In this document: positions 5,207 through 51,503 of the stretch, one piece after another
Numbering within the stretch: the first letter of the stretch is position 1
Layout of the letters: every line of letters starts with the position of its first letter
NCBI GenBank assembly: GCA_963674945.2
Contig: CAXXWQ010000002.1
Span: forward strand, 416,001-480,000
Source: an uncultured Desulfosarcina sp.
GTDB taxonomy: Bacteria; Desulfobacterota; Desulfobacteria; Desulfobacterales; Desulfosarcinaceae
Reading direction: 5' to 3'
DNA: 64,000 bases
Notes under the pieces: generated by a model
Database searches by the model: none
Seen by the model: the letters and a program-made list of their open reading frames with translations, nothing else
What the model was told of the DNA's origin: nothing
Translations under genes and position numbers: made by a program

Positions 5207-6307
5207 ATGTTAAATGTCTGTCACATTATTTCTGGTGATCTTTGGGCTGGTGCAGAAGTGATGGCGTTTCAACTATTAAAAGAGCAAAGTAGATGTAAGG
5301 AACTTGATATTTCCGTTGTTTTGCTTAATAAAGGGCGCCTTTACAAAGAAATAAAAAAATTGGGTGTAAAAATTTACTTGATTGATGAAAACCAGCAGTC
5401 GTTTATAGAAGTGCTGATAAAAATGAGGAAGATAATAAGAGAACAATATATTGAAATTATACATTCGCATCGATATAAAGAGAATATCCTTGCGCTTTTT
5501 TCACTAAATCCCTTGTCGAAGAAAAAATTGATTGCAACTCAACATGGTATGGCGGATGTTCAGGTAGGAAAAGTAAAATTAAGGAGCCATTTTATATCCT
5601 GGCTAAATCTATTAATCTTAAAAAGGAAATTTAATATCATTGTAGGGGTTTCCGATGATATTAAAAGACAGTTTGTTGAAAAACACAAAATTAATGAGAA
5701 AACTGTTGATGTAATTCATAATGGTATAGAAATCCCAAAAATTTTGACGAATAGAGATAAATACTCCTATTTTACTATAGGATCTGCCGGACGATTTTTC
5801 CCAATTAAAGATTACTCTTTTTTTATAGAAATCGCTAGGTTGATTAGGGATAATACAGATCAAATACGGTTCAAGCTGGCTGGTGATGGGCCGGATATGG
5901 AAAAACTTCAACAAAAAGTTCGATTATACAATCTCAAGGATTGTTTTGAATTCGTTGGGCACATTGATGATATGGATTATTTTTACCAGGGACTAGATCT
6001 ATATATAAATACTTCCATTCATGAAGGCATTCCAATGAGTATATTGGAAGCCATGGCGTATAAACTACCAATAATTGCGCCAAACGTTGGGGGATTTAAT
6101 GAGATTGTTGATAGCGGAATTGATGGCTATCTGATTGAAATAAGAACGCCTGAACAATTCGCGGAAAAATGTCTATATTTATATGAAAATCGTACATTGA
6201 GTAAAAAAATGGCAGAATCAGCAAGAGAAAAAGTGATCAAAAAGTTTTCCGTGGAAAACATGGCTGAGAAATATTATTCGTTATATAAAAATATTGTATC
6301 TGTTTAA
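5207..6307 (+). CDS. Glycosyltransferase family 4
   Basis: GAE N-terminal motif, VIHNGI, EGIPMSILEAMA (EX7E), NVGG. Confidence 0.92.
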   Translation: MLNVCHIISGDLWAGAEVMAFQLLKEQSRCKELDISVVLLNKGRLYKEIKKLGVKIYLIDENQQSFIEVLIKMRKIIREQYIEIIHSHRYKENILALFSLNPLSKKKLIATQHGMADVQVGKVKLRSHFISWLNLLILKRKFNIIVGVSDDIKRQFVEKHKINEKTVDVIHNGIEIPKILTNRDKYSYFTIGSAGRFFPIKDYSFFIEIARLIRDNTDQIRFKLAGDGPDMEKLQQKVRLYNLKDCFEFVGHIDDMDYFYQGLDLYINTSIHEGIPMSILEAMAYKLPIIAPNVGGFNEIVDSGIDGYLIEIRTPEQFAEKCLYLYENRTLSKKMAESAREKVIKKFSVENMAEKYYSLYKNIVSV

Positions 6308-17490: not shown

Positions 17491-19050
17491 TCAATAGCGA
17501 AGGATCGCCAGCGTCTGTTTGTCGATATTTTTTGGCAAAAGCGCCAGATGGTCCTCCCGCGTCCTGGCCAGCGGAAGTTTGGCGAACAGGTATCGAAGAT
17601 AGGCATAGGGTTCCAGCCCATTGGCTTTGGCCGTTTCGATCAAACCGAAGAAGGTGGCGCTGGCTTCCGCACCCCGGGGCGCGCCGGAAAACAGCCAGTT
17701 CTTGCGACCCAACACGAATGGCCGGATGACATTTTCAGCCACATTGTTGTCGGGCTTCAGAAATCCGGCATTGATATAGACAACCAGTTTGTCCCATTGG
17801 TTTAGGCAATATTGGATCGCTTTGCCGAGAAGGCTTTTCGGAGGAGCTTGCCAATGGTAGGTGTCCAGCCAGGTTTTAAATTGTTTCAGAATCGGCTTGG
17901 CCTTTTCCTGTCGCAGGTCACGGATCTGTTCATACGACAAATCCTTGTCTCGCGCATACCGTTCTATGCCATACAATGCGCCAATGTAATCCAGCGCCTC
18001 GTCGGCAAGCCCCTTGGCTGCTTTTTGTTTGCCGCGCGCCTTGCGCCCTTTGTTCACCTCGACAAATTTACGTCGGGCATGGGTCAGGCAACCTAAATGG
18101 ATGATCCCTTGCTTTTGGGACAGCTGATCATAGCCGCTGTAGCCGTCGCTTTGAACATAGCCCGAATAGTCTTCTATCATATCTTGCACTACCTTCCCAC
18201 TACGGGTGGGATGATACTGGTAAAGCACCACAGGGGCATCCAACGGGCCGCCACAAAACACCCACATATACGATTTTGTTGTATTGCTGCGGCCCGGTTC
18301 CTGAAGCACCTGAAACGGACTTTCATCGATATTGATCACAGGACCGCTTCGAATCTCCTGATGCATCAATTCGACGATCGGCTGGCAGCAACCGGCGGCC
18401 TGAATCATCCAATTGGCCATGGTTGACCGTGAGATGTCAACGCCCAGACGGTCAAATATCTTTTGTTGGCGATGCAGGGGAAGCGCATCGGCGAATTTTG
18501 AGACAGCGATGTGGGCCAGCAGTCCCTCAGTGGCGTTGCTCTTGGGAATCAGTTGTTCTGGCGGCGGAGCGATCCTAACGGTGGGGCCGTCATCCTCGAC
18601 GCCTTCGCAGGCCTTGCAGGCGTATTTGGGGCGGATGTGACGGATCACCTGGATTTTTGCCGGGATATAATCGAGCTTCTCACAGGTCTCTTCGCCGATA
18701 CGGCTCAGTTCAACTCCGCAAGCACACCGTTTCTCGGCCTCAGGGATATCGTGCAGGACCTCGACGCGGGGCAGATCCTCAGGCAACGGTTTGCGGCCAC
18801 GCTTTTTGCGGGTGTGCTCCGGGACGGTGATGTCGTCATCGGCAAGGACGGGCTCTGCGGTTTCGTCGGGTTTGAACAACTGGAGTTGGTTGGGATTGAC
18901 GGCCGGCAAAACTTCACTTTTGCGACCGAACAGCTCGTTCTTCAGCAGACGTACCATTTCTTGCAGATGGTCGATTTGCTGCTGCTGAGAAGAGATAATC
19001 TCCTTAAGCGATTGGGCGTCATCGGGCAGGTTGTTCGATTCCGAAAGCAT
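17491..19050 (-). CDS. tnpC: IS66 transposase TnpC
   Basis: LFGRKSE, zinc finger, IDES, SDGY, CLTHARRKF, DNNVAEN, GRKNWLF. Confidence 0.95.
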   Translation of the reverse strand: MLSESNNLPDDAQSLKEIISSQQQQIDHLQEMVRLLKNELFGRKSEVLPAVNPNQLQLFKPDETAEPVLADDDITVPEHTRKKRGRKPLPEDLPRVEVLHDIPEAEKRCACGVELSRIGEETCEKLDYIPAKIQVIRHIRPKYACKACEGVEDDGPTVRIAPPPEQLIPKSNATEGLLAHIAVSKFADALPLHRQQKIFDRLGVDISRSTMANWMIQAAGCCQPIVELMHQEIRSGPVINIDESPFQVLQEPGRSNTTKSYMWVFCGGPLDAPVVLYQYHPTRSGKVVQDMIEDYSGYVQSDGYSGYDQLSQKQGIIHLGCLTHARRKFVEVNKGRKARGKQKAAKGLADEALDYIGALYGIERYARDKDLSYEQIRDLRQEKAKPILKQFKTWLDTYHWQAPPKSLLGKAIQYCLNQWDKLVVYINAGFLKPDNNVAENVIRPFVLGRKNWLFSGAPRGAEASATFFGLIETAKANGLEPYAYLRYLFAKLPLARTREDHLALLPKNIDKQTLAILRY

Positions 19051-19113
19051 GCCTGATACATAGCATAACCAATTGAATTTGTACACACTTATTTTACTTC
19101 CAGGTGGATGTTC

Positions 19114-19461
19114 TCAGCTTGCATAACGGTAGTTTAAACGCACATGAGCATTCGTATAATCCAGTCCGGCGAGAAGCCATTCCAGTTCTTTCGCACTAAG
19201 GGAAACGACTTCTTTTGTGGTTGTTGGCCAGTGGAAACGGTGCTTCTCCAGCCGTTTGAGCCAGAGAGCAAATCCATTTTTATCCCAGTATAAAATTTTT
19301 ATCATGTTCCGACGCCGATTGCAGAAGACGAACAGGTCCCCTTCGAAGGGATTCAAATCCATGGCCTGTTCCACCAAAACCGAAAGCCCGTTGATCGATT
19401 TGCGCATATCGGTATTACCCACGGCCAGAAAGACCCTTTTGGGATTGGTGGGCAACATCAT
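19114..19461 (-). CDS. tnpB: IS66 accessory protein TnpB
   Basis: TDMRKSINGL, FVFCNRRR, KILYWD, KRLE. Confidence 0.95.
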   Translation of the reverse strand: MMLPTNPKRVFLAVGNTDMRKSINGLSVLVEQAMDLNPFEGDLFVFCNRRRNMIKILYWDKNGFALWLKRLEKHRFHWPTTTKEVVSLSAKELEWLLAGLDYTNAHVRLNYRYAS

Positions 19462-19787
19462 AATGTAGCCACCATTGCAACAAGCTTGTTGATTTCTATC
19501 GATCCGTTTTGATCATCGACTTCGATGGTAAATCCGTTGGGGGTATGAATACGAACGGATGGATGTTTCCTCGTCGCTGATCCGTTGAGCGCAACCGGCA
19601 AAAAAGTAACTCGGGTTTTATCAACGGGCATGATGCGCCGTTTCCAATCGTAAAACCGATGGAGAATGAGATCGTTTTTTTTACAATAGGCCCTTTGGCT
19701 TAGGCTGCTGATCTTCCATTTCTCGATATGATTTTCCCAAAATTTTCGCCTTTGCTTGGAATCGAATGAATCATAGTCTTCAGGCAT
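19458..19787 (-). CDS. tnpA: IS66 accessory protein TnpA
   Basis: W..HIEKW..SSLSQRAYC...FYDWKRR; first ORF of the IS. Confidence 0.88.
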   Translation of the reverse strand: MPEDYDSFDSKQRRKFWENHIEKWKISSLSQRAYCKKNDLILHRFYDWKRRIMPVDKTRVTFLPVALNGSATRKHPSVRIHTPNGFTIEVDDQNGSIEINKLVAMVATL

Positions 19788-28027: not shown

Positions 28028-29075
28028 CTGGGGTATGCACTTAAATCCAGCACATACTATATGTTGTGGCCCAGGTCATCGTCAATTGGATCGAGATTTA
28101 AATTTGCTGCCCCTTCCAAAAACGGTAACGATGCACCTTTAAGAGTACTAGCTGGGGCAGGGTCCACCATCACGGCCTGTTGGACCAGCCTGTAAAATAG
28201 TTTTCCGCGAGACACTGATGTTCTACGGTTGAACCTGAATGTGAATTCATCCAAATAGTACATCAAATGAGACGGTCTGACCGCCCCTTGATAAGTACCA
28301 AGTAACCATCGTTTCATGAGCGACGCTACCAAATGTACAATCTTCAAGTCATGCGATGGAATCGCAATATGCTTAAATCCTTTATCGCCAAGGCTGCTAT
28401 AGCCGGGCCAATCATCCGTCCTGATGGTGCTGCCTGGCTGGGCGATTTCTTGTACAAATTGAGTCAGACTATCTCCCGATGCGTCTTCGAGGTGCCAGAG
28501 TCTAATTCGCCCAATTCCTTTTCGGCCTTTATCCTCCACGGCAATACCGACCAAAGCTTTACCTTCAGCACCCCGACCGCGTTTTCCAGACTTTTTCCCA
28601 CCGACATAGGTTTCATCAACTTCAACAATCCCGGACAATCGGTCACGTCCTGGACGAACCATTGCTCTTCGAAGTTTATGGAGCCATTGCCAGGCGGTAT
28701 TATAACTCCCAAGGTTAAGTACTCTCTGAAGCCCAAGTGCATTAGCTCCGTACTTCTGACCTGTAATGTGCCACATAGCCCGAAACCAAAGAGACAAGGG
28801 CTTTCTGGTGCCGTGAAAAATTGTACCGGAAGTTATCGTAGATTGATTTCCACAATCAGTACAATGAAACTGGGATCGTTTAGTTCTCCACGAGGATGCA
28901 GAACCGCAATGAGGGCAACGGAAGCCTTCGGGCCATCTAAGAGCCATCAAATAGTCAGTGCATCCAGCTTCAGAGCTAAATCGTTTTTCAAATTCTATCA
29001 ACGTTCTGGGGTAATCTTCCTCCATAGACTGGTACACTATATGTTGTGGCCACTGGAGTCAAGTGCATACCCCAG
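28028..29075 (-). mobile_element. Complete IS1595-family element (1048 bp)
   Basis: Inverted ends CTGGGGTATGCACTT; 8-bp target duplication AATTTGAA (28020-28027, 29076-29083). Confidence 0.93.
28057..29037 (-). CDS. IS1595-family transposase
   Basis: RWPEGFRCPHCG zinc ribbon, VEVDETYVGG, TDDW, YLDEFTFRFNRR. Confidence 0.95.
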   Translation of the reverse strand: MYQSMEEDYPRTLIEFEKRFSSEAGCTDYLMALRWPEGFRCPHCGSASSWRTKRSQFHCTDCGNQSTITSGTIFHGTRKPLSLWFRAMWHITGQKYGANALGLQRVLNLGSYNTAWQWLHKLRRAMVRPGRDRLSGIVEVDETYVGGKKSGKRGRGAEGKALVGIAVEDKGRKGIGRIRLWHLEDASGDSLTQFVQEIAQPGSTIRTDDWPGYSSLGDKGFKHIAIPSHDLKIVHLVASLMKRWLLGTYQGAVRPSHLMYYLDEFTFRFNRRTSVSRGKLFYRLVQQAVMVDPAPASTLKGASLPFLEGAANLNLDPIDDDLGHNI

Positions 29076-30101: not shown

Positions 30102-30181
30102 AAACAGATAGGAGATAGCGAACAGGAAGGAATAAAACTGCAAATCGCCTATTGACACACCCCAAAAGTCATTGAATTTTC

Positions 30182-30396
30182 GCTATCAGCTATCAGCTAT
30201 CAGCTATCAGCTATCAGCTATCAGCTATCAGCTATCAGCTATCAGCTATCAGCTATCAGCTATCAGCTATCAGCTATCAGCTATCAGCTATCAGCTATCA
30301 GCTATCAGCTATCAGCTATCAGCTATCAGCTATCAGCTATCAGCTATCAGCTATCAGCTATCAGCTATCAGCTATCAGCTATCAGCTATCAGCTAT
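30182..30396 (+). repeat. Perfect tandem repeat (GCTATCA)30
   Basis: 30 exact heptamers plus GCTAT; reverse complement of the TGATAGC spacer module. Confidence 0.97.
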
Positions 30397-30472
30397 ATCG
30401 TCTGTGTTCGTCCGTGTGTGTCCGTGGCTAAAATTAAACGGCTCTGACGAAAAAGAATTTAGAAAAGCTTTA

Positions 30473-33633: not shown

Positions 33634-34128
33634 ATGAAGCGATCAGTTTGGATACTACTCTTTTTGATTTGTGCGACTGTGGTGATGCCGGACGGGGCGA
33701 TGGCAATTGATTTCTCATGGAGTTGGGCGCCCAATGGGTCGACCTATACATCGGGACCGGATGGCGACATCGTTTACGATCTGTACATGCGGGACGACGA
33801 TGATGCCGATTATGCATACGACTATCCGTTGATGGCTGGAATCGAGGATTGCACTGGGGATGATGACCTGTACTCGTGCAGGGCTTCTTTGGATTATGAC
33901 TTTATGCCCGGAGTAAACTACTATTTCGTCGTTGTCGCCTATCTTTCGGAAGATCCCGCTTTGCGAAGCGCCTCTTCCAACGAAGTGCACTACTATATCG
34001 ATCCTGCCAATGAAGAACCGGTCATTGAAGAACCCGGCTTGCAGGATAGTGGTGCCGGAGGGGGCGGCGGATGTTTCGTTGATTCCAATATCATTGAATT
34101 TTTTTCCGGTTGTGATACGAATAAATAA
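33634..34128 (+). CDS. Secreted FN3-like protein with GGGGGCFV C-terminal motif
   Basis: Signal peptide; FSWSW, YDLY, PGVNYYFVVVAY...S..SNEV; CFI-box-like tail. Confidence 0.7.
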   Translation: MKRSVWILLFLICATVVMPDGAMAIDFSWSWAPNGSTYTSGPDGDIVYDLYMRDDDDADYAYDYPLMAGIEDCTGDDDLYSCRASLDYDFMPGVNYYFVVVAYLSEDPALRSASSNEVHYYIDPANEEPVIEEPGLQDSGAGGGGGCFVDSNIIEFFSGCDTNK

Positions 34129-34240
34129 ATCTTTCTATTACTTGCGGCAAATTCGACAATCGTTTGGATTAATTTCGTTTCCGTTTTTAACTCCCCTATG
34201 TGAACCGCTGGGGGAAACCGTGACCATCGATCGGTACCGC

Positions 34241-35536
34241 ATGCGCATTCAAGATACCGCTGACCGACGTGCTTTCTGCAGCTTTTCCCTGTGCTTGTGG
34301 CTTCTGTTTTGCCTCGGGACGGATGCCATCGCCGATTTTCATTTCACCCCACGCCTATCGGCCGGTGTCGCCTATACGGACAACGTTTTTTTGACTCCGG
34401 ATCGCGAAGAGCACGACATCATCACCTTCGTTTCTCCCGGTATCGCTCTGGAGTGGACGGGTCGAAACAGTGCTCTGGGCATTGACTATGCCCCGATTTA
34501 CAACAGCTACCTGCGGTTTCCGGAATATACCTATTGGGGCCACAGTGCGACGTTGGACGGGTGGACCGAAGTTGCCCGTGGCACCCGGCTGGAATTGACC
34601 AACACCGCTACCTATACCCAGGATCCGCCGGATACCGAGACCGATACCACGGTCCGGCAAGGCAGAGAACCGTATTTCACCAACACGGCCACCATCGGCG
34701 TGGTCAATCAGTTCGGTGCCGAAAACAGCATCGCATTGCATTACACCCACTACATTCTCGAAAACGAAGACATTACCATCGAAGACAGTTCCTATCATCG
34801 GCCGGAAATCCTGATCACCCACTGGTTTTCCCCCAACCGCTATGCCTTGGAAATGGAGGCGCTGTATACCGTCAGCAACTTCGATGTGTCTGCGGATTTC
34901 GATGATCTGGACGCCCGGATTCGATTTACCAAGCGTTTCAACAGCCACCTGGACGGGTATCTCGAATATGGTCATGTCTACCTCGACTATTACGACGACA
35001 CCGAGGAGGATTATCAGGTATACAGTCCACTGGCGGGTTTCATCTGGGATGAGCGGTCCAACACGCACTTTGGCGCCAGCTTCGGTTATTTTTATCGGGA
35101 CAACGAGTTCAGCGAAGACGACGACGGCATCGTCGGAACCATTGAGATGAGCTATGCCTATTCCAGAGAGAGCACTTTCTCGATGCTCGGAGACGTGGGG
35201 TATGACCGTGCCAATTTCGGTGCGGAAAACCTGGGATTCAATCCCTACTATTCGGTTTCGGGCTCCGTTGATCACCGGATCAACCGCCTGCTCGCGGGCA
35301 TTGTGACCGCCGGGTATCGACGGAACCTCTACATCGACGAAACCCCCGACAGGGAGGATGCCGTATGGTATGCCGGCGCCGGTCTGGCCTACCAGCCGCT
35401 GGCATGGCTGACGTTCAATCTGGATTATGAATACAGGCAGATCAACTCCAACGTCGACATCAACGATTATACGGAGAACCGGGTAACCTTTTCGTTTCGG
35501 TTGGCGCCGGGGCAGCCGGTGCGGTTTGGGAGATAG
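34241..35536 (+). CDS. Outer-membrane beta-barrel protein (EPS/PEP-CTERM-associated)
   Basis: TPRLS....YTDNVFL, SPG, alternating aromatic strands, SN....DYTENRV C-terminus; start uncertain (34219 GTG possible). Confidence 0.8.
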   Translation: MRIQDTADRRAFCSFSLCLWLLFCLGTDAIADFHFTPRLSAGVAYTDNVFLTPDREEHDIITFVSPGIALEWTGRNSALGIDYAPIYNSYLRFPEYTYWGHSATLDGWTEVARGTRLELTNTATYTQDPPDTETDTTVRQGREPYFTNTATIGVVNQFGAENSIALHYTHYILENEDITIEDSSYHRPEILITHWFSPNRYALEMEALYTVSNFDVSADFDDLDARIRFTKRFNSHLDGYLEYGHVYLDYYDDTEEDYQVYSPLAGFIWDERSNTHFGASFGYFYRDNEFSEDDDGIVGTIEMSYAYSRESTFSMLGDVGYDRANFGAENLGFNPYYSVSGSVDHRINRLLAGIVTAGYRRNLYIDETPDREDAVWYAGAGLAYQPLAWLTFNLDYEYRQINSNVDINDYTENRVTFSFRLAPGQPVRFGR

Positions 35537-35586
35537 GCTGTAGCCCAAAGACTGCAGGCTGTAGGCCGATGGTATGGGAGATACCT

Positions 35587-35796
35587 TTGCGGGACCACAC
35601 GAAGTTAAGAGCATTTGAATTGGCGGATGAATTAGCGATACTTACTTATCGTGTGACACGTAATTTCCCAAAATCCGAGATTTATGGACTTTCTTCCCAG
35701 ATGAGAAGGGCCGCCGTTTCGGTGCCGTCAACGATTGTGGAGGGGTGTGCTAGAGAACGCCAGGCAGAATATCTGCAAAACTATGAGGCATTATAG
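35587..35796 (+). pseudogene. Four-helix-bundle protein (TIGR02436 / 23S-IVP family), 3'-truncated
   Basis: RDHTKLRAFELAD...FPKSEIYGLSSQMRRAAVSVPS.IVEGCAR; only ~69 aa versus roughly 115-120 usual; RBS GGGAG before TTG. Confidence 0.88.
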
Positions 35797-35870
35797 ACTA
35801 TAACCTGTCGCCTACAGTCTAATCTGCTAAACTTATTGGAGGCTCCATGAACATATATACAGGCCATGGC

Positions 35871-38804
35871 ATGATAAGGTTTCTGCTCGTCTTGGTTTTG
35901 GTGACGCTGATGGGACCGGCGAGGGGCCTGGCGCTGGATGTCAACGGCATTGTCGACACTGACAGCCGCTGGACAACGGACGACAGTCCCATAAAGATCA
36001 CGGGCGATCTTCTGGTGGCCCAGGGGGCGACCCTGACCATCGATCCGGGTGTTCAGGTGGTGTTCATGACGCGTGCCGATACGGCCCGGGGATACAATCT
36101 CAGGGTCGAGGGGACACTGTTTGCCCGGGGCACCGCAGCAAATACCATCTCCTTTACCGCCCAGGACCCGTTGCTTCCCTGGGGCGCAATTCTCTTCGAG
36201 GATATCAGCGCGGATTGGGATGCCGACCAGGGGACCGGGAGCAGAATCTCCCATTGCGTCATCGAATACGGGGGCAATACCGCAGATTTCGGTATGATCG
36301 TTACCCGAAATGCCATGCCCCTGATACGTGACAACGCCATCCGTTTCAGCGCCGGCGCAGGCATTGCCGCCTTTGCCGACGACGGCGTGGTGACGGTCGG
36401 AGAGAATCTTCAGATCATCGACAATTGGATTTACGGCAACCCCATCGGTCTCGTCATGTTCGCGGAGGAAGGGGTGGTGACCGGTAACTACTTTCTGAGC
36501 AACGGATCGGCCATGGACGTCACGGCCCGCTCCAACGCTGTCGTCATACAAAACAACACCATTTCAGGCGCTTCAACCAACCTTCTCGGGTCGGGGATTC
36601 GTCTCGAACTTGCCGAACCGGCCAGCGGTCTTGCCGGCTACAATTGGGTGCAGACCGGAGGGCCCACTGTTTCTCTGGACTCGACCGACGGCAATCAAGC
36701 CTCGTTTGTCGCGCCGGATCCGGGAAGCGACGTTTATGTCCTGACCTTCGAGCTGACGGCAACGGGTGTCGATGGTTTGCGTGCCGCCGATACGGTGGCG
36801 GTGACCGTAACCGGAACGAATCTGCCGCCGGTGGCAAACGCCGGGTCCGATGCCAACGTTCTTCGCACCGCCGGAATGATGGTAACCCTGAGCGGGGTCG
36901 GTTCAACGGATCCCGACAATGGGATCGCCTCCCTTTTCTGGGAGCAAGAGTCCGGAACAACGGTCTCTTTGCAGGATACGGATACGATCGCACCCTATTT
37001 TTACATCCCTTACACGGTCGTTGCCGGAGAAGAGATGACCTTCCGGCTTACGGTGACCGACCAGGGCGGACTCGAATCGACGGACACGGTTACGCTTCGT
37101 TTTTACAGCGACAACATCTACCCTCGTGCCGGTGTCGGGGAGGAGATGGCCGCCGCAACGGCACAGACCGTCGAGCTGGATGGCACCGGATCCGTGGATC
37201 CGGACGGCGTGATCGCAACCTATCTTTGGGAGCAGACGGACGGGACGACGGTCACCCTGGAAAATGCCGACACGGCCACCGCCAGTTTCGAAGTGCCGGC
37301 GGTTGCGGACGGTGGTGAGGTCTTGACCTTTGCGCTGACCGTTACCGACGATGGCGGATTGACGGACACCGAGACGCTGACGGTCCGGATCAACCCCGTT
37401 GCGGTGGATGCCGGGGAAGACCGGACCGTTTCGGCCGGCGACGAGGTGATTCTCGACGGCAGCGGTTCCATCGATCCCAATGCCTCTGCCGACATCCAGA
37501 TCCAGCACAATACCATCGTGTCCGACGGTGACGGTGCCGGTTTGATGGCCGTTACCGGGGTCGAGGAGGCCCGGTATCAATTGTCATTTTCCGAAAACAA
37601 CCTCGAATTCGACGATGCACAAGGCTATGCGTTTTATCTGTACGATTGGGATGAATCGACCACAGAAATCAACATAACCCACAACTGGTGGGGAAGCGTT
37701 TCCATTCCTGCCATCGACACCTTGATTTACGATCAGGCCGATGATTTCCAATTGCCTTCGGTGGTGTACCGGCCTGTCGCCGCACAGTTGATCGCGGCAG
37801 CCGGATCAGACCTGGTTTATCCACCCCTGGCCAATGCGGGGCCGGATATGGAAACCACCATGGATGCGGCCGTGACCCTTGATGGCAGCCAATCCTACGA
37901 TCCCGACGGGATCGGCACGTATCGATGGGAACAGACAGAAGGGGAATCCGTGACAATTCGTACATCCAATCAGGCCGTCGCGACTTTCGTCGCGCCCTCC
38001 GGCGGCACCGACGGTCGGGAGCTTCGCTTCTCCCTCACCGTATCCACGGGCGGACCGTTCACCCATACCGATGAGGTCGTGGTTACCGTCGTGCCCGATG
38101 AAACCGTGCCTCTGGTCGAGGTGGGCGAAGGCTGCTTCATCGGTTCGACGATTGCCCCATCCGTCGAAGCGGGAAAGGGGTGCGTGATGATGATTGTCGC
38201 AACCTTGGCAATGGTTTCGTGTCTGGTTTTGGGGTCCCGAAAGAGAAGGCAAGGTTTTGCCGCACTGTTTGCGGTTTTGCTGGTTGTTTTCATTCCATCG
38301 TCACACGCCGGCTTTTTTGCCGTTGGCGGTGGCGGCGGTGGTGAAGCGGAGAGGTATAACATCACCATCGAAACCGGGGCCAAGGACATTACCGCCGGCT
38401 CCTTGGAGATGATGTTCGCATTCGGGATCCCGTTCATTCCCCACGGTGACAAGAATATTCCCGAAAATACCGTTGCGATGCCGTGCCCCAACGACCAGTG
38501 CATGTCGCTGGGAGAAGAGAGAAAAGGGACCGAAGTGGGGTTTTATGGAAAATTGGGGATCGAGATCGGATCCACCAACCTCTATTGTAACCTCCTTGGT
38601 GGTTTTACCGCATACACGGAAAGTGAACTGGTGCGATCAACGGGTTCCGGCACAACATTCGAAGAATCGTCCGATACGGTTTTAGAACCCCTCTATGGCG
38701 CCGGGTTGAGCTATTTTCCGGATTACTGGAAATGGCCCATCCTCCTGCAGGTGGACTGGGACATCACCCGGGGAGTTACGGGCACCATTGGTTGGTGTTG
38801 GTGA
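35871..38804 (+). CDS. Large surface protein: beta-helix, PKD/K319L-like repeats, internal GCFI+TM segment, C-terminal beta-barrel-like domain
   Basis: Signal peptide; LTIDPGV; repeated PVANAG.D/LDG..S.DPD/Y.WEQT.G; ends GVTGTIGWCW. Confidence 0.8.
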   Translation: MIRFLLVLVLVTLMGPARGLALDVNGIVDTDSRWTTDDSPIKITGDLLVAQGATLTIDPGVQVVFMTRADTARGYNLRVEGTLFARGTAANTISFTAQDPLLPWGAILFEDISADWDADQGTGSRISHCVIEYGGNTADFGMIVTRNAMPLIRDNAIRFSAGAGIAAFADDGVVTVGENLQIIDNWIYGNPIGLVMFAEEGVVTGNYFLSNGSAMDVTARSNAVVIQNNTISGASTNLLGSGIRLELAEPASGLAGYNWVQTGGPTVSLDSTDGNQASFVAPDPGSDVYVLTFELTATGVDGLRAADTVAVTVTGTNLPPVANAGSDANVLRTAGMMVTLSGVGSTDPDNGIASLFWEQESGTTVSLQDTDTIAPYFYIPYTVVAGEEMTFRLTVTDQGGLESTDTVTLRFYSDNIYPRAGVGEEMAAATAQTVELDGTGSVDPDGVIATYLWEQTDGTTVTLENADTATASFEVPAVADGGEVLTFALTVTDDGGLTDTETLTVRINPVAVDAGEDRTVSAGDEVILDGSGSIDPNASADIQIQHNTIVSDGDGAGLMAVTGVEEARYQLSFSENNLEFDDAQGYAFYLYDWDESTTEINITHNWWGSVSIPAIDTLIYDQADDFQLPSVVYRPVAAQLIAAAGSDLVYPPLANAGPDMETTMDAAVTLDGSQSYDPDGIGTYRWEQTEGESVTIRTSNQAVATFVAPSGGTDGRELRFSLTVSTGGPFTHTDEVVVTVVPDETVPLVEVGEGCFIGSTIAPSVEAGKGCVMMIVATLAMVSCLVLGSRKRRQGFAALFAVLLVVFIPSSHAGFFAVGGGGGGEAERYNITIETGAKDITAGSLEMMFAFGIPFIPHGDKNIPENTVAMPCPNDQCMSLGEERKGTEVGFYGKLGIEIGSTNLYCNLLGGFTAYTESELVRSTGSGTTFEESSDTVLEPLYGAGLSYFPDYWKWPILLQVDWDITRGVTGTIGWCW

Positions 38805-38809
38805 TTGAT

Positions 38810-39215
38810 CGTGATGAGCAAAGAGCGGAGAGCAACGAGTGATGAGGAAATAAGCTGATAGCTCATGGGTGATAGCTCATAGGACATGGATGATGATCGA
38901 AGGAAAAAATTGAATTATTGTTTTGCCACGGACACACACGGACGGGGTTTGATCTTAGATCAAAGGTAAAGAGCAATGCGTAATGAGTGATGGGGAAAGG
39001 AGCCTAAAGATCATTTCCAAAATAATTCACTGCCCGCTTCGCTCGAGCCGCAGAGTTTCATTATTACCCCGAAGATAAATGAAAAAACATTTGCGTTTCT
39101 GCGGTGCAAACAAAAATAACTTCGACTCTTTACAAGCCAGTAATCAGTTATGCGTTATGTGTTATGAAAAACAACATGGTAATAGGCCATAGACTACAGC
39201 CTACAGCCTGTAGTT
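38810..39215 (+). repeat. Mosaic spacer
   Basis: 38851-38995 matches 23020-23121, 16424-16496 and 32160-32228; inverted GGCTGTA module at 39190-39213. Confidence 0.8.
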
Positions 39216-39224
39216 TATCCCATC

Positions 39225-43433: not shown

Positions 43434-46400
43434 CTATTTACATTTGTTATGATCTATTGTGTCAATTGTTTTCGATATATTTATGGGTGGGGTTATACCC
43501 AGTCCTACATTGATACCGAATTGTCCGCTCAACGGGTAATAGCTTATTCCCAAATAACGATTTAAGCCAAATGTAAAAGCAAGATTACCTATTGCATTAA
43601 AACCATTTAAATCGGAAATATTAAATACAAACTCTGTGCCACCACCAATCAAACTTGTAGAAACGCCTATATCAGTCTTAGTGCTAAACCAGTTACCATT
43701 TCGGTTATGAATTTGAGTAGAGTAATCAGTGAAAAGTATTGAACCTCCAACATTCGTACGACTATAGTGTATCGTACTATCTGGAACGAAGTTTTCAATC
43801 ATTTCTGGACCAAAAGCCTCTAATCCCATCGGATCAGTCCAATTAACTGGATTATTACCTACATACCCATAAACATTAATCCCCCCAACCAAACCAATGG
43901 GATCGGTCCGCATGTATCTTCCGGTTCGGGGATCATAATACCGATGGTAGTTATAATGAAGGCCGGTTTCACCATCATGGCACTGGCCCGGGAACCGGAA
44001 ATTATTAACAAAGCCGTTGGCCGTTATATCAACCTGGCCGAAGGGTCGGTAATCGCCTTGCCAGACGACATCGCCGAACTCATCGGTAATGATGATCGGG
44101 GTCCCAAGATGATCGTTGATGAAAAAATAGAGTTTGTCAACGGTCCGTTGGGCGGTGATGGCCTCCGGCAGGATTCCCGTGAGGGGGCCGAAGGATGCCA
44201 GAAGGATGGGTTCGGGTGAGAATACCGGCGGCGTGCCGTCGAACCGGACCGGAAACGGCGACAGGGTCATATCGGCAAGGAGAATGTCCAGATCCATCTC
44301 CACATTGGTGTTTTCGCCGGCCATGATGTTGACGGCCGGCGACCAGACCTGGCTGCCGTCGTGGTCCACCCGGAATTTGTAGGCGCCGTCGGGCACAAGG
44401 AAGTCGGCCATACCGGAAGAATCGGTGCGTTCCATCCGGCCGAGATAGGCGCCGGATTCTGAGAAGAGATAGACCGGGGCATCGAACAGGTCCCAGCCGC
44501 CGACGGTTACGTGGACTGCTGCCCGGCCGTGTTCGATGGAAATGATCGTATCGGTCTGATTGATCACTTCGGACCAGGTTTGTACGGATAGGCAGTCCGC
44601 CCTGAACGCATAGTCGGCCGGCGGAAGGTTGAAGGTTGCCTGGCCGTCTGCATCGGTGAAGGCGCTTCGACCCATGTAGGCGCCGGCGGCGGAGAACAGG
44701 TAGACCGGCACGTCCGCCAGGGGCGCGGCAACCGGGCCGAACTGTCCGTCGACGGTCACTGTTACCATCTGGTGGGTGATGGTGAGCAGATCGGACCGAA
44801 TGTCGGGGATGACATGGTCCGGGGTCCAGTACCGATAACCCAGATAATCGACACGGAACCGATAGCCGCCGTCGGCAAGATCGAAGGCGACCTGGCCGGA
44901 ATCATCGGTATGGGCCGAGAGCCCCAGATAGGCGCCGGCATCGTTGAACACATAAACCGGAACGTCGACCAGAGGCGCGCCGGTCTCCGTTTGGACGGTC
45001 AGGGCGAAGCTGCCGCCGCCTGTGGAAACGGCGATGGGCGTCGTCCCATGGGCCGCCACCGTTGCCGTGGCCCAGAATTGATTTCCCATGTGGTCGGCCC
45101 GGAACCGATAGGTCCCCTGGGGCAGGCGGAAGTTCACTTCTCCCCGGGCATCGGTCTCGCCGCTGATGTTCAGATAGGCATCGGTTATACCGAACACGTA
45201 GACACTGACATTTTCCAGGGGCTGGATTTCCTGCAGTACGGTGACGGCCGCGGTCCCCTCCTCGATGAGGATGTCCGCATCGGCCAGGGTAACGGGATCG
45301 GTCCAGTACTGCCGGCCCATGTAATCGGCCCGGACGGTATAGGCCTGGGCCGGCAGGTTGAACGAGGCCTGGCCGGCGGCGTCGGTGACGGCCGACATGC
45401 CCAGGTAGGCCCCATCGGGTGTGAACAGGTACACCGGTACGCTATCCCTGGCTTCCATATCACCGTCGTCGTTGCCGGCGACCGTGATGACGACATCTTC
45501 ATGGGCGATGGTCATCCCCACGGCATCGGTGGCCGGTACGGAAAAGGCGTCGGTCCAATACCGGTAGCCCAGATAATCGACACGAATCTGATACCCTCCA
45601 TCGGCCAGATGGAAATCGGCGGTACCGTCCCCGCCGGTGGCGGCGCTCTGGCCTAAATAAACGCCGTCATCCGAAAAGAGATAGCAGGAGATTCCGGCCA
45701 TGGGATTTCCTGGGGATTTTTCCATCGTGAAGGTGAGGTTGCCACCGCCGGTGGAGACGGTGACCGGATTGTCCACATGGGCTAACACAGGGGCTGTGCC
45801 GGAAAAATAGCGGCTGCCCAGATAGTCTGCCCTGAAGTTGTAGTTTCCCCGGGGCAAACGAAAGGATATTTCCCCCTGACTGTCGGTCTGGCCGGACAGC
45901 CCCAGGTAGGCACCCGCCTCGTTAAACGTGTGAACATTTACGCCGCCCAGGGGCAGGCCCTGTCCGGTGACCGAAACCGTTGCGATTCCTTCGTCGATCG
46001 TAACGGTTTCGTCGTTCTGGTTGAAGATCGCAGACCAGTATTGTCCACCGATAAAGTCGACCCGGACCTTGTACTCCCCGGCCGGCACCTGGAAGGTCGT
46101 TTGGCCCTGGTCATCGGTGAAGGCGTTGATGCCCAGATGGGAACCGGAGGCGGTGAACAGGTAGACGGGAACTTGCTCCGGAAGCCGTACATCGGCATTA
46201 CAATCCCGCAGGACCGTGATTCCCACATCCTGGTGATCGATGATCAGTTCGGATACGGTGTCGGTGGTCACCGCGATTTCCTCGGTCCAGAACTGATATC
46301 CCATGTAGTCTGCCCGGACCTTGTACATGCCTTCCGGCACAGTGTAGGAAACCCGGCCGGCGGGATCGGTTCGGCCGCTTGCTCCCAGGTAGGCGCCGGA

Positions 46401-49400
46401 TGAGGAAAACAGGTAGACATGAATCCCGTCCAGGGGGGTATGGTCCTGGGTCGTCAGGGTGACGGTCAAGGTCCCCCCGCCGGTGGCAACGGCGAAATCG
46501 TTGGCACCATCCGGTGACACGGTAAGGACGTCGGACATGAACCGGCCACCCAGTACGTCGGCTCGGAACCGGTACCCCTGTCCGGCGGGCAGGATGAACG
46601 AAACATTTCCGTTTTCGTCGGTGATCGCGAAGATGCCCAGGTAAGCGCCGGCCTCATTGAACAGGTAGACCCTGACCCCGGCCTTTGGTCCATCCGCCTG
46701 GGTGATCAGTACTTCGACGGTTTCCACATCGATGACGATGCCGGCGGATGTCGCTCCAGGAAGGGTGACGGCAGAGGACCAGAATCGGTCGCTCAGGTAG
46801 TCGGCCCGGAATGTGTAGCCGCCGGTCGAGAAATCACCGGGATTGAAAGCGGCCTCTCCTGTATCGTCCGTGACGGCAAACCGGCCGGTATAGGCGCCGC
46901 TTTCGGTAAAGGCATAGACGCGAATGCCGGACAGGGCCATGCCCTGTGATGTGGACACCGTGACGGTGAATTCGTCCGATACCGGAGTCGCTGCCACGGC
47001 CGCCAGGCGATGGTCGCCCAAATAAATATAATGGGCGATAAAATCCCCATCGATCGTGGATTCTCCGATGAGATGACCGAATTGATCGTAGTGAAACACC
47101 GTGGTGCCGTCGGCTGTGGTGGCCCGGGTTCGCTGGCCGAGGGAATTGTACATGTACTCGCCCAGGCTGCCGCCGGCGTCGGAGACCTGGATGAGGCGGT
47201 TGTTCCGGTTGTAGGCGTAGGTGATTCCATCTGTGGCGGTCATGTTGCCGGCATCGTCGAATGTGAAACCGGAGGGAAGGGCGCCGGTGATGGTTTGGAG
47301 CCGATGGGTTCCGGGATGGTATTGATAGGTTTCGGTCTGACCATCGACCGTCCGGGTGAGGCGGTTGCCCACACCGTCATAGGCATAGCCGATGGTGCCG
47401 TAGATCCCCGTGGCTTGGGTCAGACGATACAAATCGTCATATTGAAAGGACTGGAAACGGTCGGGGGCCTGGGTGTCGGTGATGGCGGTAATGTTGCCCA
47501 TTGGATCCAGGGTGTAGGACCGATCCATGAGGGACGGGGCGGTGACACCGGTGGTACGGTAGCCGTCGTCGAAGGTGTGGATGACGCGAATGCCGGAACC
47601 GTTGGTGTAATCCGCCACGGGTCCGAAGGGAAGATGTTCGATTTCCTCTGCCACGATCTGCGTGGTTTGATCCATGGTCGTGGTGATCCGAACCACCCGT
47701 CCGGCCCCATCCAGCTCATAGTCCACCTGCCGTCCGTCGGGATAGGTGATGCCGGTGAGCACATCGGCGGCATCGTATTCATAGGAGATGGTGTATATAC
47801 TTCCCGCCATGGTGCGCCGGTCCTGGATCAGATTGCCCGATGGATCATAGGAAAAGGAACAGCTGCCGCCACTGTCGCGAATGCCGGTCAGCCGGCCCTT
47901 TCCGTTTTCACCCGCATCGTACGTGTAGGTGACGTTTTCCTTCGGATCTGCATAGGCGATGTCCGTCAGTCGATACTCGTCGTCATAGGCGAAGTTGACG
48001 ATGATTCCGTTGCCGTCGGTTTTGGAAACCGGATTGCCGGCCTCGTCGAAGAGATAGGCGGTGGTGCCGGCATCGGGAGAAACGATCCTCACCGTGCGGC
48101 CCAGATCGTCGACCACGTATTGTGTGGCCACGTTTTCGGGGTCGGTCACCAGGACCAGGTTGCCCTGTTCGTCGTAATCATAGCCGGTGACCACCGATCC
48201 CGGTTGCACCATGGCGGTCATTCGATTCATCAGGTCATAGGCGTATGTGGTGATCTTGCCCGCGGGATCCGTGACCCGGCGGACATTGCCCGCTGCGTCA
48301 TAATCGTAGGCGAAGAAGGTATCGTCCGGGTTGATCGCCCGATACAGCTTTCCGGGGCGGCTCGGGTGCTGGTAATCGAACCGCTGCCGGAACGTGCGGG
48401 TGCCCGACGGAAGGAAGTAGCCGGTGTCGATGATGTTGCCCTGGCCGTCATAGCCCCGGCCGATCCGGTTGCCCAGGGCGTCGATGGTGGACGTCAAACG
48501 GCCGGTGGCCGGGTCGTATTCATGGGTCAGCGTCGCGCCGTTGGGCAAGGTAACCGTATCCAACATGCCGGCCGATGTGTAGGAAAAACCGGTTGTCGCG
48601 CCGTCCCATTGCCGTGTCATGGCCGTAACCCGCCCCCGACCATCATAACCATAGTCGACGCTGTTCAGGTTGGGATCGGTGATGCGACCGGGTCTGCCGG
48701 CGGCATCGTGCTCGCTGAAGGTCGTCGTGCCCGAAACCGGCCGGGTGACGCCGAGCAGATCACCGGTGATCGAATCATAGGTGCAAGTGGTGGTATCACC
48801 GGTGCCGGAGAGGGGACCATCCACACTTTTCAGCTGCCCTCGGGTATTGTAGGCAAATGTAGTGACCGATTCCACCGGGGCCACTGCTCCCGATGCATCT
48901 TGTGTGAATCCACCGACGATCAACCGATGGACCAGGGGCGTCGGATCTTCATTGGCAATATCGTCGCCGTCATCGTCGTAGTCCCAGGTTGTCATTTTGT
49001 TTCCACTTGCCAGAACGCTCTGCTCAATGCGGGTCAGCGGTTTGTTCAGCGTCGGATGCCAGATCGAAATAACCTCCTTTTCATCCCCCGTTCCCGCAGC
49101 CCGGACAGTCCTGCCGGCATTGCCCCGGTCGTCGAAGTCTGAAAACAGGTCGATCCTTCCGTTGGCATATTCCATCTCGATGACGTTCAAATGCTCATCG
49201 TATTCCCAACGGATTGGCTCTTCCACACAACCGGCGCATCCGGAATCTCCGGTGACACCGAAAATCCGCCTACGTCCCTTGATGGCAGTAAATTGATACG
49301 TTCTCGAGACCCCATAGGCATCGGTTACGACAGCGGCGTTGGCAATGGTATCGTAATCGATGGTAACGCCCCGGCCGTCCGTGGTGTCGTTACGATAACA

Positions 49401-51329
49401 GCGGTCCTGATCATCATAGACCCAGGTTGCCAGGAGATGACCCATTGTGTCGGTTTTTTTCGTCAGGTTATTGATAAACGGCGCCGTATCCGCATCGTCG
49501 TAGTCGTAGACAAAACCGGAACCGTCGGCAAACGTCGCCGTAGTGAGGTTTTTGTTCTCATCGTAGTCGTAGGCGACCTGGATGCCCCCGTCCAAGATGC
49601 CGGACAACAGTCGGATCGACGTGAGAAAACCATCCGTATAGGCAAACACCAGGGAACGGCCGCTGGCCTCATCGATGACGGTTTCGATCAACCCGGGTTC
49701 GGTTGTACCATAGACCATGGTCCGACGGTTTCCCATATGGTCGGTGATATACAGCAATTGGCGGGTTGTTGCATCGAAAGTATACGTGTTGCCGTTCTCG
49801 CGTTCCCAGATATAGGTGTCATCCCGGGCGATGAGATTGGTCCTCTCCTGGAACAATGGAAGTATGGTTCCGGTATTCGGATCCTCTTTGAAATAACGTC
49901 CAAAACCGGTATCATCCAGAATCAACAGATACTCGCTATCCACACCCGTCACCGATTGCAGCGTGATATTGTAGTTATGGGTCCAGCCGTATCCCATGGG
50001 GCTGACAACTTCGCTCCGGCTGTTGTAGAATCTTTTAAAGATCAGACCGCCGGCAAAGGGAGACGGTACGTCGAGATCCGCTTCTGATTCAACCAGATTA
50101 CCGGTATAGATAGAGACGGGATCACCTTTTTCGGCCACATTATTGCAATTTATCTTACCCTTGGGATCTCGTCCCAGATCCAGAGGGATGTATTCGCATC
50201 CATCCGCTGCATTGCCGTATCCCTGCGGGCAAGCATCCATACAGTCATTGATCCCGTCGCCGTCATAGTCCAGACCGTAGGCGCCGGGATCCTGGCAGCC
50301 GACGATAAACAATACAGACTTGATCGTTCTACTTCCATTGGTGGATACAGCCTTCAAACTCAATGAGTGAAAGCCGTCTTCCCAATAGCCGTACAAGGCT
50401 GGATCCAATTCTCTATAATTTTCGTTGTCCGTGTTGAAGCTAAAAGTGTAATCTGTTCCATTGATCGTTTTGGACGTCCTTTGTTTTCCATCGAGGTAAT
50501 ACGTAATCGTGCCTTCCGCACCGACTGGATTTTCCTTAAATGACACCGACCCTGTAAAATCAAATTTTCCGGATATTTTCTCATTGGGAGAAGGCGTGGA
50601 TATGGTAATTTCCGGTGTGTTGTCTACAATAAACGTTGCTGTCTTCTCACTTTTTGTTCCATTCTTGGCAACTGCCCTGACCGTTACCGTGTGCGGACCA
50701 TTGGTCATTCTTCCCGCATTGAGTTTTGTGGTCGGATTTGCCGTGTTATAGCTGAATGGAATTTCTGTGCCTTCGCAGTATTTGCTTAATCGCATCGAAC
50801 CGTCCAGATAAATATAAATCTCCCCCTCAGCACCCTCGGGGTTATCTTTGAAATTGACGAGCCCTGAGATATCGAACTCTCCTGCCACTTCTTCACCAGG
50901 AAATGGGGTGTTTACGTAAACATCCGGAGTGTTGTCGACATTGATCGAGACAGAATCGGTACTTGAATTGTCTTTGCAATCCGTTGCCCTTGCGACGAAT
51001 GTATGTGTTCCGTTCTGCATCCTGGCGGTATTTACCCCATAGGAACAAAATGCGCTGCCGTTTCCTTCATCAGAACACCAATGGGATCCGTCTCGATACC
51101 CAACTAATGTTCCATGACTATTATCATGACAGGCCGGTGGATCATCGGGGCTGCAAAACTCGTAGGTGGAAAAGGACGCCGCATTGCTGACGGTTATCAA
51201 TCCTTCGGTTGCAGACAAAGAAACTGAAGCGCTGGTGGCAAGGGCTATTTCTGAAACACCCCATATGACAGAAAAAGCGAGGATAAAATAAAATGGTTTT
51301 CTTTTTCTAATGTTGTTTTTACAGGTCAT
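43434..51329 (-). CDS. RHS/YD-repeat protein with signal peptide, Ig-like domains, DUF6531, 11 internal repeats and variable C-terminus
   Basis: GDPVSIYTGN, YD repeats, DHLGTP, RFPGQ..D.ETGLHYNYHRYYDP.TGRY...DPIG, NPVNWTDPMGL; RBS GGAG before 51329. Confidence 0.93.
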   Translation of the reverse strand: MTCKNNIRKRKPFYFILAFSVIWGVSEIALATSASVSLSATEGLITVSNAASFSTYEFCSPDDPPACHDNSHGTLVGYRDGSHWCSDEGNGSAFCSYGVNTARMQNGTHTFVARATDCKDNSSTDSVSINVDNTPDVYVNTPFPGEEVAGEFDISGLVNFKDNPEGAEGEIYIYLDGSMRLSKYCEGTEIPFSYNTANPTTKLNAGRMTNGPHTVTVRAVAKNGTKSEKTATFIVDNTPEITISTPSPNEKISGKFDFTGSVSFKENPVGAEGTITYYLDGKQRTSKTINGTDYTFSFNTDNENYRELDPALYGYWEDGFHSLSLKAVSTNGSRTIKSVLFIVGCQDPGAYGLDYDGDGINDCMDACPQGYGNAADGCEYIPLDLGRDPKGKINCNNVAEKGDPVSIYTGNLVESEADLDVPSPFAGGLIFKRFYNSRSEVVSPMGYGWTHNYNITLQSVTGVDSEYLLILDDTGFGRYFKEDPNTGTILPLFQERTNLIARDDTYIWERENGNTYTFDATTRQLLYITDHMGNRRTMVYGTTEPGLIETVIDEASGRSLVFAYTDGFLTSIRLLSGILDGGIQVAYDYDENKNLTTATFADGSGFVYDYDDADTAPFINNLTKKTDTMGHLLATWVYDDQDRCYRNDTTDGRGVTIDYDTIANAAVVTDAYGVSRTYQFTAIKGRRRIFGVTGDSGCAGCVEEPIRWEYDEHLNVIEMEYANGRIDLFSDFDDRGNAGRTVRAAGTGDEKEVISIWHPTLNKPLTRIEQSVLASGNKMTTWDYDDDGDDIANEDPTPLVHRLIVGGFTQDASGAVAPVESVTTFAYNTRGQLKSVDGPLSGTGDTTTCTYDSITGDLLGVTRPVSGTTTFSEHDAAGRPGRITDPNLNSVDYGYDGRGRVTAMTRQWDGATTGFSYTSAGMLDTVTLPNGATLTHEYDPATGRLTSTIDALGNRIGRGYDGQGNIIDTGYFLPSGTRTFRQRFDYQHPSRPGKLYRAINPDDTFFAYDYDAAGNVRRVTDPAGKITTYAYDLMNRMTAMVQPGSVVTGYDYDEQGNLVLVTDPENVATQYVVDDLGRTVRIVSPDAGTTAYLFDEAGNPVSKTDGNGIIVNFAYDDEYRLTDIAYADPKENVTYTYDAGENGKGRLTGIRDSGGSCSFSYDPSGNLIQDRRTMAGSIYTISYEYDAADVLTGITYPDGRQVDYELDGAGRVVRITTTMDQTTQIVAEEIEHLPFGPVADYTNGSGIRVIHTFDDGYRTTGVTAPSLMDRSYTLDPMGNITAITDTQAPDRFQSFQYDDLYRLTQATGIYGTIGYAYDGVGNRLTRTVDGQTETYQYHPGTHRLQTITGALPSGFTFDDAGNMTATDGITYAYNRNNRLIQVSDAGGSLGEYMYNSLGQRTRATTADGTTVFHYDQFGHLIGESTIDGDFIAHYIYLGDHRLAAVAATPVSDEFTVTVSTSQGMALSGIRVYAFTESGAYTGRFAVTDDTGEAAFNPGDFSTGGYTFRADYLSDRFWSSAVTLPGATSAGIVIDVETVEVLITQADGPKAGVRVYLFNEAGAYLGIFAITDENGNVSFILPAGQGYRFRADVLGGRFMSDVLTVSPDGANDFAVATGGGTLTVTLTTQDHTPLDGIHVYLFSSSGAYLGASGRTDPAGRVSYTVPEGMYKVRADYMGYQFWTEEIAVTTDTVSELIIDHQDVGITVLRDCNADVRLPEQVPVYLFTASGSHLGINAFTDDQGQTTFQVPAGEYKVRVDFIGGQYWSAIFNQNDETVTIDEGIATVSVTGQGLPLGGVNVHTFNEAGAYLGLSGQTDSQGEISFRLPRGNYNFRADYLGSRYFSGTAPVLAHVDNPVTVSTGGGNLTFTMEKSPGNPMAGISCYLFSDDGVYLGQSAATGGDGTADFHLADGGYQIRVDYLGYRYWTDAFSVPATDAVGMTIAHEDVVITVAGNDDGDMEARDSVPVYLFTPDGAYLGMSAVTDAAGQASFNLPAQAYTVRADYMGRQYWTDPVTLADADILIEEGTAAVTVLQEIQPLENVSVYVFGITDAYLNISGETDARGEVNFRLPQGTYRFRADHMGNQFWATATVAAHGTTPIAVSTGGGSFALTVQTETGAPLVDVPVYVFNDAGAYLGLSAHTDDSGQVAFDLADGGYRFRVDYLGYRYWTPDHVIPDIRSDLLTITHQMVTVTVDGQFGPVAAPLADVPVYLFSAAGAYMGRSAFTDADGQATFNLPPADYAFRADCLSVQTWSEVINQTDTIISIEHGRAAVHVTVGGWDLFDAPVYLFSESGAYLGRMERTDSSGMADFLVPDGAYKFRVDHDGSQVWSPAVNIMAGENTNVEMDLDILLADMTLSPFPVRFDGTPPVFSPEPILLASFGPLTGILPEAITAQRTVDKLYFFINDHLGTPIIITDEFGDVVWQGDYRPFGQVDITANGFVNNFRFPGQCHDGETGLHYNYHRYYDPRTGRYMRTDPIGLVGGINVYGYVGNNPVNWTDPMGLEAFGPEMIENFVPDSTIHYSRTNVGGSILFTDYSTQIHNRNGNWFSTKTDIGVSTSLIGGGTEFVFNISDLNGFNAIGNLAFTFGLNRYLGISYYPLSGQFGINVGLGITPPINISKTIDTIDHNKCK

Positions 51330-51503
51330 GTTTTTCTCCGATATTCCCCGGTGGAGGAGATAATTCATGCAAGAACGGATTTTCTGATGGAATCCAGTGG
51401 AGAATCGAATCGGAGGGAGAACATACCTGGTGTGGTGGAACTGGAACGCAATGCCTGGTAGTACTTAAAACGGATTTTACATATGATCTTTTTTATGGCT
51501 TTC

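Follow-up and report, generated by a model that had tools for sequence, protein, structure and literature searches.

The window that we analyzed is a 64,000-nucleotide stretch of an uncultured Desulfosarcina sp. genome (GCA_963674945.2, contig CAXXWQ010000002.1, positions 416,001–480,000). Two plus-strand host genes within it are separated by a small broken gene that lies between inverted runs of a 7-base word, which we denote word B. The features of this locus, in window coordinates, are as follows.

33932–35536, plus strand: upstream host gene, an EpsL/TIGR03016-like outer-membrane protein (below the curated cut-off)
35524–35532, plus strand: degenerate outer edge of the left arm, pairing imperfectly with 35823–35832
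35533–35567, plus strand: left arm, five word-B heptamers (consensus RTAGGCT / AGGCTGT)
35576–35581, plus strand: GGGAGA, a putative Shine–Dalgarno-like sequence 5′ of TTG 35587
35587–35796, plus strand: four-helix-bundle (TIGR02436/PF05635) pseudogene of the MRDHTKLRAF clade (hereafter clade B), with residues 1–63 kept and the remainder out of frame
35775–35803, plus strand: deletion junction and other-frame remnant of the natural C-terminal tail, aligning with RSMR at residue 113 of relatives
35788–35832, minus strand: right arm, five degenerate word-B units and outer edge
35838–38804, plus strand: downstream host gene, a 985-aa surface-protein-like ORF with GGAGG and ATG 35847 (below the curated cut-off)

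The left arm (35533–35567) reads ATAGGCT, GTAGCCC, AAAGACT, GCAGGCT, and GTAGGCC, and the right arm (35788–35822), read on the minus strand, gives TTAGACT, GTAGGCG, ACAGGTT, ATAGTCT, and ATAATGC; the two runs face inward around a TIGR02436-like gene, just as the preliminary description of this DNA had it. The pattern TAGRCTRTAG has 27 matches in the window (25 plus, two minus; chance mean 0.09, 0/100 shuffles), of which the plus-strand match at 35534 belongs to the left arm and the minus-strand match at 35812 to the right arm. Scored as an inverted repeat on their own, the decayed arms do poorly (20 bp, score 8.5, reached by 235 of 5000 random genome windows); the weight of this copy comes from the word match and the family. 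The arms pair in the predicted RNA fold (fold z = −2.77). No Rfam family matched window positions 6000–44000, and annotated phages gave no match. The contigs of X1 and X3 both span the cassette with identical letters, and no joints were found.

The gene scores above the cut-offs of both profiles (TIGR02436, 59.1 vs. 24 bits; PF05635, 65.3 vs. 33.8 bits), and its start, placed by the match to MRDHTKLRAF of relatives, is TTG 35587 and not ATG 35569. Comparison with intact relatives places a deletion of ∼146 nt inside it, with codon 63 joined out of frame to the tail; the product has 69 aa and lacks residues 64–112 of a complete four-helix protein of ∼117–125 aa. The gene had been called truncated and TIGR02436-like: its family membership stands, and the lesion is an internal deletion that leaves the tail in place rather than a loss of the end. 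Its N-terminal part is 75%–86% identical to the closest intact relatives.

The upstream gene's stop (TAG, 35534–35536) is the TAG of the first word-B unit; orthologues of this outer-membrane gene end RF-stop, without the arm. We sought the downstream gene in 65 genomes of the taxonomic family and obtained orthologous junctions in four congeneric genomes (G018, G019, G025, and G035). There, the gap between the outer-membrane gene and the downstream gene is ∼65–250 nt, compared to 313 nt here, and a four-helix match is absent from all four junctions. The same gene junction without the cassette identifies the cassette as an insert, in line with an earlier suggestion of presence/absence polymorphism. 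No excised form was seen, and the empty-site orthologues, too diverged at 50%–61% protein identity, showed no target-site duplication. In three of the four empty junctions (L115, L116, and L118), traces of CGCAGAG, GAAGATCGG, and AGGAGCC words are visible by eye, and the site looks as if it had been hit repeatedly.

Cassette architecture across the protein family

We sampled 455 loci of the family, corresponding to 427 distinct genes, and restricted the analysis to the 371 full-length genes with flanks, setting 56 aside. An initial arm criterion was too loose (146/258 random pairings passed) and was replaced. The arm-word threshold adopted was passed by 207 of the 371 genes, with 164 below it, compared to 11 of 250 mismatched pairings. 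The layout proposed from the one locus, a gene with heptamer runs facing it from both sides, is the rule for the family. By inspection, the 10 TIGR02436 matches of this genome have the same inward-facing layout with other words, and some of the genes are decayed or split.

The word goes with the protein clade. Word B was present on both arms of 56 of the 80 clade-B genes (and missing from one or both arms in 24), compared to two of 291 others, and its carriers span 12 named phyla. The fraction of gene pairs whose words differ by at most one mismatch was 81% at 80%–90% protein identity, 53% at 70%–80%, 35% at 60%–70%, 12% at 50%–60%, and 1%–2% below 50%. The expectation that each clade pairs with one heptamer word was borne out. 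The sample comprises few phyla and many kin, so p-values overstate; kin are not independent, and word conservation could in part reflect co-inheritance. We hold with high confidence that the cassette and the clade–word pairing are both real.

This pairing bears on the idea that the words serve the host in regulation or structure (translation, termination, G-quadruplex), with the gene among them by chance. Orphan heptamer repeats of the same geometry have been read in that way. The sections of PMC4692102 on GGGAATC repeats (Xanthomonas, Nostoc) describe a four-unit preference, a G-rich strand just after stops, and convergent pairs, so that period 7, preferred unit number, placement after the stop, and convergent pairing are all shared with our cassettes; those of PMC4679880 on TAACTGA repeats (Beggiatoaceae) place them for the most part directly ahead of start codons. 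Among our 371 genes, one cassette (L220) has TAACTGA on its right arm, GGGAATC was not found as an arm word, and the term "helix bundle" is absent from the main text of both papers. Against a host signal, the word tracks the protein clade and not the host, with several words per genome and one word in 12 phyla; word-B runs of at least three units are concentrated on one contig (19 on C2 within 334–459 kb, one on C3, none on C1 and C4); and word B has no G3 tract. We disfavor this idea as very improbable.

The number of units per arm peaks at four to five: among 742 arms, two units were found in 149, three in 119, four in 210, five in 130, and six in 39. The median stem length of 27–32 bp would also fit an RNase III substrate. 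G occupies word position 1 in 117 of 122 words, in part a product of the phasing; two measures are less circular, namely, the variability of the anchor G, which is the least variable position (9.0% vs. 10.7%–19.3% in 34 single-G words), and an RG versus CY asymmetry of 94 to 33 of 122. Three-frame stop codons were not enriched in the words (57/122 vs. 56.6 expected), and a second, outer inverted repeat turned up at just 11 of 200 loci (12/600 in the null). A cassette's own arms matched each other better than they matched sister arms in 92 of 117 comparisons and worse in 22, and mirror matching of the arms unit by unit gave 0.861, barely more than the 0.849 (maximum 0.864) of shuffled order.

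Could the arms be slippage microsatellites, kept complementary by template switching and hitch-hiking with a horizontally moved gene whose protein does not read them? Arms do expand, to (GCTATCA)31 in one element and to about 40 units behind a paralogue, and own arms still beat sister arms of the same word (46 better vs. 20 worse, of 72). On the other side, unit numbers peak at four to five with no steady fall, the anchor G is held more constant than its neighbors, and word B is kept across 12 phyla while clade gene DNA is only ∼67%–76% identical to this copy and the spacing of units varies. On balance, we consider slippage quite unlikely, though less so than a host signal.

The left arm begins at most 15 nt from the upstream stop in 99 of the 167 family loci with a stop found (207 examined), and of 206 loci examined with crude ORF calling, 184 could be called, 131 of them with both neighbors co-directional. 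Clade-B copies occupy junctions of diverse, unrelated operon gene pairs, including those of umuD/umuC, metK/ahcY, argF/argG, hypF/hypD, and gmd/fcl type (names read from Pfam domains). The 110 neighboring ORF fragments of 56 clade loci included no reverse transcriptase (RT), no DDE transposase, and one phage integrase.

Several variants were noted. L036, L041, L046, L047, and L049 are among the clade-B genes that have a complete left-plus-right hairpin on one side or on both; in L044, the arms are flipped. A four-helix paralogue (L008/L009, G000:C2:360394–362378) is split by an insert of ∼1.6 kb, and three tandem four-helix genes ∼1 kb apart have GTGAAC-type arms (G032:C1:4261058–4263406).

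Spacers of the toxin–antitoxin array

Word B and other words of this kind fill the spacers of a toxin–antitoxin (TA) array upstream of the cassette:

6308–30100, plus strand: toxin–antitoxin array, with modules in both orientations and spacers with left-type words only
30106–30427, plus strand: gene-less word-C element ending in (GCTATCA)31, then a right-type decamer run

Pfam matches in the array comprise PIN/VapBC, HEPN-MNT, ParE, PemK, and Fic modules in both orientations. All 43 matches to seven word patterns within 6308–30100 are left-type on the plus strand; because the patterns were written from spacers as well as arms, cassette arms settle the direction independently for B and C only (21 matches). 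An outer cap present on some clade-B arms (left, 15/80; right, 19/80; other genes, 1/291 on either side) recurs five times in the TA spacers, always on the plus strand, and in other genomes spacer 11-mers have matches in the left arms of clade B, the word-C clade, and further clades. The left-type words, the caps, and the 11-mer matches fit the proposal that spacers are stacked left arms, and TA spacers probably derived from left arms. The first right-type words after the array are at 30182–30427.

The proposal had also cast these arms as parts of complete units, and here it fared less well: TA modules are generally not such units. Homologous TA modules of relatives were not arm-enclosed (0/14 in 13 loci; inverted-repeat scores of 7–11, at noise level), and several homologous loci had same-direction stacks on both sides. 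One RHH-PIN module in this genome is arm-enclosed (L494, G000:C2:349670–350725), with inward-facing left and right B arms and other words nested. The array spacers share long direct repeats, and the array may have grown by recombination between left stacks or by nested insertion just inside a right arm. The one-sided word bias recurs in G015 and G017, for which a generic word map, otherwise too strict, was used only for orientation. It is absent in G031 and G037, where right-type words are the more numerous, and is therefore not universal. At 343–387 kb of C2 in the Desulfosarcina genome of the window, left and right words are mostly balanced, sometimes in nested pairs.

The broken gene had been put forward as a possible key to the spacers. 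This did not hold: spacers mix the words of several clades with words that also occur around a GxxExxY gene, and this one gene is therefore not the key to them. The genome (98.7% complete) yielded no intact clade-B gene, the sole match at E ≤ 1e-12 being the broken copy; the B words of the spacers are therefore without an intact cognate protein found in the genome.

The gene-less word-C element occurs twice, at window 30106–30396 and at G000:C2:349714–349870, with 92% identity over 78 nt and about 31 and 12 GCTATCA units, respectively. It looks like a copied non-autonomous derivative. Separately, gene-less CGCAGAG hairpin units stand in tandem inside polysaccharide/TA regions of G015 and G017 (L476–L479), with periods of ∼165–335 nt. 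A GxxExxY gene (TIGR04256, G000:C2:376512–376853) lies among paired decamer/octamer arms of CACGGAC and CGCAGAG types (C2 363–382 kb), the left forms of which also fill TA spacers, which raises the possibility of a second protein family with this architecture.

The array also holds a set at 17491–19787 that we take, from its sequence, to be IS66-like, an IS1595-family transposase at 28057–29037, and two small ORFs duplicated at 98% and 92%. Elsewhere in the window, left-type words lie on the minus strand at 39139–39218, just 3′ of the stop of a minus-strand PEP-CTERM gene and in the geometry seen elsewhere, and a 2644-aa minus-strand ORF occupies 43434–51368.

Known relatives and recognition of the word

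The largely open-access literature that we searched yielded no publication on this class and only parts of it, namely, one rRNA intervening sequence (IVS) with heptamers and the orphan heptamer repeats. A close known relative is the 23S rRNA IVS (S23p/IVP; Coxiella, Leptospira). As described in the sections of PMC4990558 on the insert, the Coxiella IVS has a PF05635-family ORF with GACAGAT heptamers 5′ of it and complementary termini of ∼28 bp, a stem that is cut by RNase III; sporadic distribution and decay by deletion are further likenesses. Those sections treat one locus and do not link the word to protein lineage. Inserts in CPR rRNA also carry PF05635 ORFs, according to parts of 10.1101/2024.02.27.582315. 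Complementary termini are common to our cassettes and the IVS, weak in this copy and of the length given above in the family. Unlike an IVS, the cassette lies between protein-coding operon genes; with two protein genes as neighbors and no Rfam match, an rRNA IVS was rejected as its identity.

We modeled L036, an intact clade-B relative, with AlphaFold (pLDDT 92) and obtained four helices. The closest solved structures are Xcc0516 (2GSC; 40%–42% identity to L036) and BT_0352 (2RLD; 17%–21%): the model matches Xcc0516 with a TM of 0.82–0.89, and BT_0352 also matches. Both entries have five chains, and their titles name neither ligand nor function. The match to Avd (4DWL/8UBx; TM 0.71–0.78, E 0.015–0.055), the accessory protein of diversity-generating retroelements (DGRs), is weaker and agrees with the four-helix fold that the preliminary description had ascribed to both. 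Avd (NF033474; PDB 4DWL, 8UB7) thus shares with our family the fold and, as judged from solved relatives, the pentamer, and protomer-wise base contacts are known for it. The sections of 10.1101/2023.10.23.563531 on the complex of the DGR describe a single RNA stem-loop that is touched by each of the five Avd protomers; flipped RNA bases sit in crevices between protomers, held by the same residues of different protomers. A DGR was rejected as the identity of our locus: the Avd profile scores 19.6 bits against a cut-off of 80, identity to Avd is 11%–15%, and no RT is adjacent, the RT matches of this genome being on C3 and C4 only and none on C2.

The IVS and Avd likenesses raise the alternative of an RNA element, in which RNase III would excise the loop of a transcript whose arms have paired, and the protein is either a passenger or an Avd-like RNA binder that recruits an RT in trans. 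The RNase III-cut stem of Coxiella with its related ORF and upstream heptamers, the stem lengths of the family, the pairing of the arms in the predicted fold, the co-directional neighbors, and the Avd fold all speak for it. Stems, however, do not favor G:U pairs on the sense strand (mismatches of G:U type, 306; of A:C type, 305), sense and antisense duplexes are equally stable (61 vs. 59, from loose alignments), pairing alone does not require a lineage-fixed word, and RT is lacking both among the neighboring ORF fragments and on C2. We regard the RNA element as doubtful, yet as the most serious of the alternatives considered here. The lack of a G:U bias slightly favors DNA over RNA as the recognized form.

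A five-fold ring and arms of four to five units would suggest one heptamer per subunit. We looked for a residue-to-base code behind such reading. By mutual information, residues 71 and 103 co-vary with the base before the anchor G (first 79 clusters). A basic residue 103 accompanies C before the anchor G with p = 3e-5 over 122 clusters and p = 0.17 in 45 held-out clusters; independent pairs gave three to four in the same direction and about none in the opposite one (median p 0.125–0.25), and even the best residue (z 3.5) stayed below the null of the pair scan (3.8). The signal is weaker in held-out clusters and fails phylogenetic controls, so we claim a trend only and no code, an outcome that counts in favor of the slippage alternative. 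We lean, if only slightly, toward the intact protein being a putative cognate binder of its word.

Integron cassette arrays rich in TA modules and MITE/REP elements offer further comparisons. Like integron arrays, the spacers here run in the same direction between TA modules of either orientation, and like MITE/REP elements, gene-less hairpin derivatives are copied as units. Unlike IS and MITE elements, the cassettes had no DDE transposase among the 110 neighbors tested. No integron integrase was found on this contig, the only IntI over the cut-off being on C3, and spacer words all face one way, so they would form no attC-like hairpins with each other. Both IS and integron were rejected, failing the transposase and integrase tests, respectively.

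Our best reading is an IVS-type gene cassette outside rRNA, here decayed and likely mobile. Such a cassette consists of a PF05635 four-helix-bundle gene flanked on both sides, in opposite orientation, by repeats of a 7-base word specific to its lineage, and we find it somewhat more credible than its negation that this copy is a decayed small insertion cassette whose intact protein binds the word as the end-recognition factor. A five-subunit ring would read one heptamer per subunit and thereby hold both cassette ends together. No transposase or RT lies beside the unit, so movement would depend on host or trans-acting enzymes. Gene loss would leave gene-less hairpins and stacked arms; the TA spacers would likely be relic left arms multiplied as direct repeats, with recombination probably adding a module and one left stack per step, and they are probably not active sites for this broken gene. 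More tentatively, PF05635 proteins at large may be lineage-programmed pentameric rings that read five heptamers, the ends of their own cassettes; these cassettes may be one source of the intergenic heptamer repeats of bacteria; and left-arm relics may form an integrase-free TA scaffold in polysaccharide islands.

PF05635 is very common and yet without a function (it was present in 104 of 121 sampled genomes of one phylum and in 35 of 61 in the phylum of this genome), and intergenic heptamer repeats have for years been described without an account of where they come from. The clade–word pairing merges these two questions into one. The copy described here, being a pseudogene, is of interest only for what it points to. 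If binding is specific, the family would be a naturally occurring collection of small rings that read repeats orthogonally; the Avd fold would have a likely ancestral role, and inserts would have a new way into operons and TA arrays.
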